Source: Geodia barretti (lineage: Eukaryota). From it: DNA of 61,629 nucleotides. Shown here in pieces: positions 26,712 to 32,262 of the stretch. Each line of letters begins with the position of its first letter. The stretch's first letter is position 1. The position numbers were made by a program, and so were the translations under genes. The DNA lies in NCBI GenBank assembly GCA_030341885.1, contig CASHTH010001844.1, positions 1-61,629 of the forward strand. The letters are read 5' to 3'. Under the pieces are notes generated by a model. That model searched no databases. It saw nothing but the letters and a program-made list of their open reading frames with translations, and was not told where the DNA came from.

Positions 26712-29162
26712 ATGCAGCAGCTCATATCCCGGTTGCTCTCGCCGCCTGGACGACGTTTCCTGTACAGCAATGGGAGGGAGAGGGAGCCGGAGCCGTCAGA
26801 ATCCGACCACCCTCTCGTGGGGGAGCAGATTTCCTTCACTCGAGCCCCGAGCATTACACCGCGGGAAGATGGCCGGTGCCTGGCCGTCTTTACGAGCGGT
26901 GGGGACGCCCAGGGAATGAACTCGGCGCTCAGAGCGGTCGTGAGGATGGCCATCTTCAGCGGAGTCCGCGTCTTTGCCGTGCGAGAAGGCTACAAGGGGT
27001 TGGTGGAGGGAGGGAAGCACATCGAGGAGTTCCGGTGGGCGTCCGTCTCGAACATTCTTCACAAGGGCGGCACAGTCGTCGGCACGGCTCGCTGTAAGGA
27101 GTTCAGAGAGCGGGAAGGTCGCCTCAAAGCCGCGGAGAACCTAGTGCAGCGCGGGATCAACAACCTAGTAGTGATTGGCGGAGACGGAAGCCTTACAGGC
27201 GCCAATCTCTTCAAGAAGGAGTGGGAGGGTCTGCTGGCTGAGCTGGAGGAGGCCGGACGCCTCACCAGAAGCCAAGTCGAAAAGTGCAAGTACTTGAACA
27301 TCGTGGGGCTAGTGGGGTCCATCGACAACGACATGTGTGGGACGGACATGACTATCGGCACCGATTCAGCTCTCCACCGCATCATCGAGGCCGTTGACTG
27401 CCTAACTAGCACTGCCGCCAGCCACCAGAGGAGCTTTGTACTGGAGGTAATGGGCCGTCACTGTGGGTACCTCGCACTGATGGCTGGGATTGCTGGCTGT
27501 GCGGACGCCGTGTTCATCCCCGAACGCCCTCCTAACCCAGGATGGGAGGACAGCATGTGCTACCAGATCGCCCAATGCCGAGATGCAGGGCGAAGACACA
27601 GTCTCGTTATCGTCTCCGAAGGGGCAGTGGATTCAGAAAACAGGCCGATAACTTCGGAGCAGATCCGGGACATCCTGCAGGCAAAGTTGGGCCACGACAC
27701 GAGGATAACTGTCCTCGGCCACGTTCAGAGAGGGGGGAAGCCGTCGGCGTACGATCGCATCATCAGCGCGCGAATGGGTGCAGCTGCAGTCATCACCCTC
27801 CTGAACGCGGAAGGAGAGATCCCTCCAAAGATGATCGGTGTTCAGGGCAACGTGATCATGCAGCTCCCGCTCATGGACTGCGTGACGAAGACGCGGGCCA
27901 TAGATACTGCGATGAAGACGTGCGAGTTCAAGCAGGCCCTCGAGCTGCGCGGAAGGTCATTCAAACGAAACATGGAACTCTTGCGACGCCTCGAATCCTG
28001 TCGAAACCCCGAGTGCGGAAGCGAAGAAGACATTCTCTCCCCAACGCCCGTCCGCAGATTCAAATTTGCAATCATGAACGTCGGTGCGCCGGCAGCAGGG
28101 ATGAACAGCTGCAACCGAGCCTGCATCCGTCTCCTGCTGTACAAGGGACACACGGTGCTGGGGGTGGGCAACGGGTTCTCGGGTCTTTTGGACGATGACA
28201 TCACCGAAATGTCGTGGGATTCGGTGACGAATTGGGCCGCCGAGGGCGGGTCTAACCTGGGAACAAACAGGATTAAGCCTACTGCCCACACGCTGCCAGA
28301 GATTGCTGCGAAATTTGGGGAGCACCATATCGAGGGGCTTCTGATCGTTGGAGGCTTCGAGGCGTATCACAGTCTCATAATCCTGGAGGAGAACAGAAAA
28401 CTCTACACGGCTTTCCGCATTCCTCTCCTCGGGGTGGCAGCCACCATCAGCAACAACGTCCCCGGTACGGAATACAGTCTCGGTTGCGACACTGCCCTCA
28501 ACACAATCGTCAGTTCTTGCGACATCCTCCGTCAATCGGCACAGGGCAACCGCAAACGTGTTTTCGTCGTCGAGACGATGGGCGGTTACTGTGGCTACCT
28601 CGCAACCATGGCAGCTCTCGCAGGAGGCGCCGACGCAGCGTACATCTTCGAAGAGAAGTTTACCATCTCAGACATCCAGAGGGACGCCGATTACCTCGTC
28701 GGGAAATTCAAAGACGGCCTCGAACGTGGTCTACTCTTGCGAAACGAAAAGTGCAACGAGAATTTCACCACAACATTTATCACTGAGCTCCTATCGGAAC
28801 AGGGTAAAGGTGTTTTCATCTGCCGCGACAGCCTTCTCGGGCACCTACAGCAGGGAGATGCACCAACTCCCTACGATCGTATCCTCGGAGTCCAGTACGC
28901 TGCCCACACCGTCGATTTCCTGCAGAAACACGCTCAGGAGAATCTGAATTCGCGGGATAAAGTCCGTGCCGAGAATGCCGAATCGGCCTGCATGATCGGG
29001 CTCCAGGGAACGAAATTCCAGGCAATTCCGCTGCAGAAACTGGCAAAGGATACGGATTTCGAGCACAGGATCCCCACGCACCAGTGGTGGATGAGCCTGC
29101 GTCCACTCATCGCGATATTCGCCAAGCACAAGGAGCACGATTTCCGTGGAGAGACCCGCTAG
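26712..29162 (+). CDS. PFK: ATP-dependent 6-phosphofructokinase (eukaryotic tandem-duplicated ~800-aa type), intronless
   Basis: Single uninterrupted ORF. The ORF track starts it at 26547, but that overlaps the upstream gene's terminal exon. The first ATG after that gene's stop is 26712 (MQQLISRLL...). Both PFK halves are present: [64 protein letters not shown] in the N-half, and [34 protein letters not shown] in the C-half. Confidence 0.9.
   Translation: [816 protein letters not shown]

Positions 29163-32262: not shown

Follow-up and report, generated by a model that had tools for sequence, protein, structure and literature searches.

What keeps one short segment of two genes nearly identical when the rest of their coding sequence has diverged to saturation at synonymous sites? 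The question is raised by a pair of phosphofructokinase (PFK) genes that lie tail to tail on contig CASHTH010001844.1 of the sponge Geodia barretti (NCBI GenBank assembly GCA_030341885.1), within the stretch of 61,629 nucleotides (positions 1 to 61,629 of the forward strand) that was analyzed here as a whole and is referred to below as the window. The initial annotation of the window had taken an island of near identity in this pair for the footprint of recent ectopic gene conversion. The mechanism is supported, both by the identity island and by discordance between trees of the island and of its flanks, but the single recent event is not, since the homogenization recurs in 10/10 genomes that contain the convergent pair. 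We consider it very likely, with a probability of about 0.9, that localized, recurrent, and non-reciprocal conversion between the two copies has acted in their longest block of amino acid identity after an old inverted duplication.

A protein search recovered many PFK orthologues as full-length single ORFs in metagenome contigs derived from sponges, and the DNA around eleven of them was retrieved for the comparison. The ENA samples concerned are ERZ25068966, ERZ26858995, ERZ25069191, ERZ25072076, ERZ25072196, ERZ25071859, ERZ28747376, ERZ25068762, and ERZ28669063. Here, W denotes the G. barretti window, W_A and W_B its two genes (PFK-A and PFK-B), and L001-L012 the comparison contigs. The set of convergent pairs comprises 10 genomes (W together with L001, L002, L004-L007, and L009-L011); L003, from a very close relative, is represented by its B copy only, L008 is Amphimedon, and L012 belongs to NCBI assembly GCA_029782515.1. 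Identity between A and B copies was taken from a codon-based alignment, in sliding windows of 90 nt. Neighbor-joining (NJ) trees with 300 bootstraps were built for three partitions (the tract of near identity, 155 codons upstream, and 547 codons downstream), and synonymous divergence (dS) and the nonsynonymous-to-synonymous ratio (omega) are Nei-Gojobori estimates. The G. barretti assembly was produced from PacBio data with metaFlye, received one round of Pilon polishing, and was annotated with RNA-seq-guided MAKER (PMC10542158).

Two diverged single-exon genes with one near-identical tract

PFK-A (26712-29162, plus strand; CAI8020740.1) is a single-exon gene for an animal-type ATP-dependent 6-phosphofructokinase of 816 amino acids, which begins with an ATG at 26712 in a frame that remains open back to 26547. 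PFK-B (29761-32262, minus strand; CAI8020741.1) is a single-exon gene for an animal-type 6-phosphofructokinase of 833 amino acids, convergent with PFK-A, and the two stop codons enclose an intergenic spacer of 598 bp with 40% GC (29163-29760). The two full-length, intronless, tail-to-tail open reading frames (ORFs) of 816 and 833 amino acids are thus present as the initial annotation had described them. Neither coding sequence contains an intron, the structure looked for in a retrogene, and the lengths of the deposited proteins CAI8020740.1 and CAI8020741.1 equal those of the full single ORFs, so the annotators likewise modeled each gene as one ORF. AATAAA occurs once in the spacer on the plus strand (29664); on the minus strand, where a canonical poly(A) signal would serve PFK-B, none was found within the 598 bp. 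Some 235-270 bp ahead of the start codon of PFK-B, at 32496-32531, lies an imperfect 22-nt palindrome (TATAGTGTCAGCCAGCTATAGC / GCTATAGCTGGCAGCTACTGTA).

Both proteins have the fused two-half architecture of PFK-1 (~780-850 amino acids, collinear with vertebrate PFKM, PFKP, and PFKL), with two PF00365 halves each (Pfam; E about 1e-190 each, 6e-190 for PFK-A). Both can be aligned end to end with human PFKM, residues 54-807 of PFK-A matching PFKM 15-756 (4omt) at E = 2e-270. In the alignment, the motifs SIDND, SHQR, and EVMGR of both copies fall on human PFKM Asp166, Arg201, and Met208-Gly-Arg210, which, by the UniProt annotation of P08237, would be the catalytic aspartate (Asp166) and ligands of fructose-6-phosphate (Arg201 and Met208-Arg210). 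Omega is ~0.04 for PFK-A against its orthologues; for PFK-B it is ~0.06-0.08 in comparison with the more distant L001 and L002 but 0.19 in comparison with L003, a very close relative. These estimates indicate that both copies are under strong purifying selection. Orthologues of PFK-B in sponge-derived contigs are 72-96% identical to it.

Over their whole length, PFK-A and PFK-B share 62% of amino acids and 63% of nucleotides, with 40-79% nucleotide identity across the 90-nt windows, so that the 70-80% proposed earlier for the flanks was an overstatement. Third-position identity is about 0.35-0.45 nearly throughout, which amounts to synonymous saturation. The plot of identity in sliding windows, which had been suggested as a test, displays a sharp island on this diverged background. 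The island is a tract of 133 nt at 27345-27477 in PFK-A (plus strand; residues 212-255, corresponding to human PFKM 173-216), and its PFK-B arm is the reverse complement at 31491-31623 (minus strand). The two arms are identical at 132/133 bases, the lone mismatch being at 27413. The near identity that had been reported for 27341-27475 is therefore real, and the encoded peptide was quoted correctly, but those limits include mismatches at 27341 and 27344 and have to be moved to 27345-27477.

That the tract stands apart from the rest of the alignment can be seen by several measures. Where A and B encode the same amino acid, they use the identical codon at 41/42 positions inside the tract versus 40% outside it (binomial P = 1e-15). 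If one mismatch is allowed, the longest matching run extends over 133 nt; 2000 shuffles of the codon columns, scored in the same way (a GENECONV-type test), gave longest runs that averaged 23 nt and never exceeded 45 nt. In W, dS between A and B is 0.03 in the tract and >2 elsewhere, and the W_A and W_B arms pair at 100% bootstrap. An independent repeat search recovered the tract as the core of an inverted pair, I1.

On its 5' side, the tract is preceded by a shoulder (27294-27344 on the plus strand in A, with its partner at 31624-31674 on the minus strand in B) in which the identical amino acid block begins and which includes the catalytic Asp of SIDND. Just upstream of the tract, from 27298 to 27344, all differences between A and B are synonymous, and in L004 and L011 the homogenized stretch reaches into this shoulder, where conversion was probably either more ancient or no more than occasional. 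The mismatch site itself (27413 in A, 31555 in B) is a synonymous position of a Thr codon, with T in W_A, C in W_B, A in L011_A, and C in L011_B; three states in four closely related sequences suggest that the site is locally mutable.

The same segment is homogenized across sponge genomes

A convergent, intronless PFK pair is also present in nine further sponge-derived contigs (L001, L002, L004-L007, and L009-L011), and the profile of third-position identity between A and B peaks at the same segment in all 10 genomes of the set. Across these genomes, third-position identity between the copies is 0.75-1.00 in the tract and 0.35-0.61 in the rest of the gene. When all positions are counted, the tract is 0.90-1.00 identical between A and B of one genome and 0.75-0.91 between species. 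At third positions, between-species comparisons of the tract, whether A with A, B with B, or A with B, give 0.34-0.75, about the level of orthologues in the rest of the gene. Near identity in the tract is thus restricted to the two copies inside one genome.

The trees express the same pattern. In the NJ tree of the tract, the two copies from each genome pair with one another at 98-100% bootstrap in 7/7 genomes bootstrapped, whereas the upstream and downstream partitions separate an A clade from a B clade at 99-100% bootstrap in six species; the discordance between tract and flanks keeps the same topology with nine species. Between species, dS is 0.56-1.15 in the tract and 0.71-1.30 in the rest of the gene; between A and B within a genome, it is 0-0.47 in the tract and >2 or incalculable elsewhere. 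Because between-species dS in the tract is normal, synonymous sites there are free to change but change jointly in both copies, and because it is as high as elsewhere, the identity is not due to constraint at the nucleotide level. The amino acid sequence behaves likewise: seven lineage-specific replacements in the block are each shared by A and B of one genome. The cross-species pattern is the one that recurrent interlocus gene conversion, or segmental concerted evolution, typically leaves behind, and it excludes nucleotide-level constraint, codon bias, and assembly artifact as its source.

Three pairs form a second clade (L007 at about 10001-15400, L009 at 1311-7441, and L010 at 10001-14836) in which A and B resemble each other more closely over the N-terminal half of the protein. 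In line with the mechanism proposed below, homogenization spans most of that half, with about 150 consecutive codons in L009 at a third-position identity of at least 0.95, and a conversion-like block is found in the C-terminal half too. In the whole-protein tree, the L007 and L010 copies fall with the A and B clades, respectively. This placement argues for a single old duplication with extensive conversion afterwards rather than for independent duplications, less securely so for L009. The A copy of L009 was called at 973 amino acids, probably from an over-extended ORF.

The arrangement differs in L012, in which two intronless PFK genes lie in tandem and in direct orientation (243-2579 and 3790-6264). 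Homogenization of the tract is weak there (third-position identity 0.68 vs 0.46), and in the second copy MGM replaces the substrate-binding MGR, with further changes in the active-site block. This copy may have escaped conversion or may be changing function. Given the weak signal together with the altered active-site residues, L012 says little about effects of orientation.

Position, boundaries, and proposed mechanism

The longest stretch over which the A and B proteins are identical, 61 residues in the N-terminal half with a third-position identity of 0.85, contains the tract. The next-longest run, of 25 amino acids, has a third-position identity of 0.52 and is not homogenized. By the annotation cited above, the tract (PFKM 173-216) would carry the fructose-6-phosphate ligands Arg201 and Met208-Arg210, with the catalytic Asp166 in the 5' shoulder. 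At its 3' end, the tract stops at one and the same codon in W, L001, L002, L004, L006, and L011 (YLA|L in A and YLA|Q in B), and this limit coincides exactly with the onset of paralogue-specific residues (in B, YLA-QMAAIAGRADWVLI). Unlike this sharp 3' edge, the 5' side of the tract is graded.

These observations are consistent with the following scenario. An ancestral single-exon animal PFK gene would have been duplicated tail to tail, in inverted orientation, in the ancestor of Geodia and its relatives, and the copies would then have diverged to synonymous saturation, both being kept under strong purifying selection. Protein constraint on the 61-amino-acid block would keep the DNA of the two copies similar enough there that the paralogue, at a distance of 4 kb, could serve as a template in homology-directed repair. 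Repeated non-reciprocal copying without crossover could in this way reset 130-230 nt to near identity in each lineage, and each conversion would renew the identity that enables the next one. Divergence of the flanks may prevent heteroduplexes from forming there and so limit the spread of the tract; in addition, conversion over the flanks would overwrite paralogue-specific residues and then be removed by selection. We infer the repair mechanism, the absence of crossover, and the respective roles of divergence and selection in setting the limits.

A crossover between the inverted arms would be expected to invert 27478-31490 and to yield chimeras with the 5' part of A and the 3' part of B. No fixed 5'/3' chimeras were found: in 6/6 clade-1 genomes analyzed, each gene is assigned to the same paralogue by its upstream as by its downstream partition, which implies that the events were non-crossover or that crossovers were eliminated. 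GC-biased gene conversion was also considered as a cause and set aside, as GC content at third codon positions (GC3) is no higher in the tract than in the rest of the gene, a comparison of low power at 44 codons.

Timing and direction of conversion

The relative closest to G. barretti is L011 (with L003), which is about 4% diverged (dS about 0.12). Between W and L011, no site of the tract is paralogue-informative, 1 is species-informative, and 4 are singletons; the flanks contain 12 (75 nt upstream) and 18 (60 nt downstream) paralogue-informative sites and 0 species-informative sites. These counts imply that the tract was homogenized already in the common ancestor of the two and has been touched again since. 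The arms differ at 1/133 positions in G. barretti and at 5/133 in L011, where the homogenized stretch also extends further 5'. Conversion events are episodic and have variable end points. The W_B tract differs from L003_B at 3/135 sites, and L011_B shows the same three differences; with 1 species-informative site and 4 singletons, L003 and L011 provide too few informative sites for donor and recipient to be assigned.

Alternative explanations

The simplest account of the island in G. barretti would be a single recent conversion with no persistent process behind it. The window taken by itself is compatible with this, as it contains only one tract with one mismatch, and an A-versus-B dS of 0.03 in the tract makes the last event a recent one. 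We nevertheless regard a one-off event as very unlikely, because the same segment is homogenized in nine other genomes, each with a species-specific sequence, and because the tract was homogenized already in the ancestor of W and L011, with one further shared change since. Further, a dS of 0.6 to >1 between contigs rules out that the other contigs come from the same species. The presence of the island in the same place in every species could also be read as purifying selection at the nucleotide level on an embedded element, such as an RNA structure, a splicing or translation signal, or a small-RNA target. This reading can scarcely be credited: the sequence of the tract is not conserved but merely covaries within genomes, and between species its third-position identity (0.34-0.75) and dS (0.56-1.15) are as elsewhere in the gene. 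Mis-mapping of short reads between the paralogues during Pilon polishing, of which the G. barretti assembly had one round (PMC10542158), or a local collapse of the assembly could likewise produce spurious identity. We give next to no credence to such an artifact, given that ten independent assemblies from different samples contain the same island, each with its own sequence, that the shoulders of the island are graded and its boundary is exact to the codon, and that the B copies of L003 and L011 match the W_B tract at 132/135 sites.

A different class of explanation would accept conversion but regard it as the means rather than the cause. If transcripts read through from one gene into the other, complementarity of the arms could be selected as a 133-bp double-stranded RNA (dsRNA) stem that allows cross-regulation of the RNA interference (RNAi) or ADAR type. 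The arms do form a nearly perfect inverted repeat 4 kb apart, with a predicted duplex of -303 kcal/mol; PFK-B lacks a canonical poly(A) signal in the 598-bp spacer; and arms that covary across species would be expected of a conserved stem as well. However, 25/55 of the A/B mismatches in the tract across the 10 genomes are transversions, which break pairing, and the transitions have no significant strand bias (20 vs 10, P = 0.10). Such a stem would presuppose a hypothetical antisense read-through of 2.3 kb or more, and the position of the tract is fully accounted for by the longest block of identical amino acids, so we hold a selected stem to be highly improbable. More broadly, the hotspot could itself be selected, either to match A and B at an inter-subunit fructose-6-phosphate site in hetero-oligomers or as a dsRNA element that couples the two genes. 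This is a very unlikely reading; if it were true in either version, conversion would be a selected mechanism, maintained across the sponge clade for longer than synonymous sites take to saturate.

Some points weigh against recurrent conversion in a shared block, or at least against its full extent. The evidence is a comparison between genome assemblies, and ongoing conversion would show as polymorphisms shared by A and B within a population. The pairs in L007, L009, and L010 may be independent, younger duplications instead of products of extensive conversion, an interpretation that keeps some weight. The comparison genomes are contigs from metagenome assemblies, and both species identity and the number of independent lineages are judged solely by sequence divergence. 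Finally, there is no GC3 excess in the tract of the window genes (0.68-0.70 vs 0.68-0.70 in the rest; 44 codons, a weak test), nor a consistent one in the 14 sequences tested (low power, again at 44 codons).

Origin of the pair and neighboring genes

The intronless state of both copies had been attributed to a retroposed or horizontally acquired ancestor. Horizontal acquisition can be rejected, since these are ordinary animal PFKs: the closest named proteins are all animal (Amphimedon 57%, Ptychodera 54%, teleosts 47-51%), and human and rabbit PFKM/PFKP are the best solved structures (E about 1e-270), far above yeast (about 1e-194). A recent retroposition tied to the duplication fares no better, as the only PFK gene of Amphimedon likewise consists of one exon (2541 nt for 846 amino acids plus stop) and has the same fn3 and RING neighbors. 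That gene has no convergent partner, and an intronless but unpaired PFK in Amphimedon implies that the inverted duplication is younger than the loss of introns. Because the intronless state and the fn3/RING neighbors are common to Amphimedon, any retroposition would predate that split and its hallmarks would have decayed; such an ancient event is one conceivable origin of the intronless PFK ancestor. Judged against the genome average of 7.2 exons per mRNA (PMC10542158), the intronless state is unusual for G. barretti, but old. The contrast with intron-rich genes that had been drawn for the neighborhood thus holds genome-wide and fails locally, where the immediate neighbors are themselves long uninterrupted ORFs.

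Upstream of PFK-A, on the plus strand, is an uninterrupted ORF of 844 amino acids (23716-26250) with the P-loop motif GPAGVGKTS, which matched no Pfam family. Its orthologues flank PFK-A in L001 and L002, and an ORF with a weak Death-domain match adjoins it in L001 (15793-16113); the 844-amino-acid ORF may, on these sequence features, be a death-domain NTPase of an undescribed family. The neighbor of PFK-B on the minus strand is an uninterrupted fn3 ORF of 670 amino acids (33604-35616), and a RING-finger ORF (37798-38700, minus strand) lies further upstream of PFK-B. This RING/fn3 microsynteny upstream of PFK is found in W (33604-38700), Amphimedon queenslandica (L008, 2804-9788), L001, L002, L004, L006, and L011.

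Other features of the window

A 57-nt minisatellite occupies 14148-16241 (about 36 copies, 93% matches, 57% GC) and gives rise to spurious long ORFs in several frames and on both strands. For instance, a nominal ORF of 684 amino acids at 14213-16267 collects odd Pfam zinc-finger and FBD matches without an individual domain stretch. The long ORFs at 14.1-16.3 kb were considered as intron-poor neighbors of the PFK genes and discarded, being in reality this minisatellite. Further satellites are located at 4076-5560 (61-nt unit, 24 copies, with higher-order periods of 306 and 367 nt), 12578-13172 (105-nt unit, 5.8 copies), and 46906-47527 (63-nt GA-rich unit, 10 copies), the last of which accounts for the spike in GC and AT skew at 46-48 kb and for the overlapping ORFs there. 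A tRNA-Ser gene (anticodon AGA) was called by both ARAGORN and Rfam at 60036-60109 on the minus strand; it is the only match in the window at Rfam gathering thresholds, with nothing in the PFK region.

Significance and comparison with known systems

As a natural experiment, the pair shows unusually cleanly where interlocus gene conversion reaches its limits, with one short segment evolving in concert through at least ten lineages, and it provides an empirical bracket for what sustains conversion in a sponge: an identical block of 25 amino acids is insufficient and one of 61 is sufficient. Phylogenies of sponge PFKs and the dating of their duplication would be misled if the segment were included. 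The single-exon PFK is an old demosponge feature and neither a recent retrogene nor a foreign gene. The locus is also useful as a teaching-quality example of segmental concerted evolution. A literature search on gene conversion in PFK paralogues found nothing relevant. The process is well known and mechanistically ordinary, and no new mechanism is revealed.

Concerted evolution of tightly linked or palindromic paralogues under purifying selection is classically known from the Drosophila Hsp70 pairs and Amy (PMC3924832). Like the PFK pair, Hsp70Aa/Hsp70Ab and Hsp70Ba/Bb are tightly linked mirror images under purifying selection, and their paralogues are closer within than between species, silent sites included (PMC3924832). 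The Hsp70 pairs are, however, divergent or palindromic heat-shock genes that are homogenized over nearly the whole coding region and whose copies are functionally equivalent, whereas the PFK pair is a convergent one of glycolytic enzymes, in which homogenization affects no more than about 5-9% of the gene (130-230 nt of 2.45 kb) and the copies otherwise differ by 38% in protein and are saturated at silent sites. In Drosophila Amy, as in PFK, conversion is confined to the protein-constrained part, not the flanks, and persists over speciation (PMC3924832). The difference is that tracts in Amy span the full coding sequence, and the PFK tract is a small segment within it with a codon-sharp edge.

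Human RHD and RHCE are tail-to-tail paralogues that exchange segments by conversion in cis. They resemble the PFK genes in that their 3' ends face each other and segmental conversion tracts make mosaics of them; they differ in being young, >90% identical, and intron-containing, and in producing polymorphic hybrid alleles instead of a tract fixed in each species. Work on GOT1 paralogues in Tigriopus (PMC3728101) and modeling of HMA4 (bioRxiv 10.1101/2025.10.29.685298) describe an interplay of conversion and selection that leads to a mosaic of homogenized and diverged sequence, as in PFK. Those pairs are young and mostly homogenized, with small diverged islands retained by selection, and the sponge PFK genes are the reverse, an old diverged pair with one homogenized island. 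Four features in combination set this locus apart: the extreme contrast of a near-identical island with its saturated background, a tract that is small and bounded to the codon, the retention of this tract throughout a sponge clade, and the kind of gene affected.

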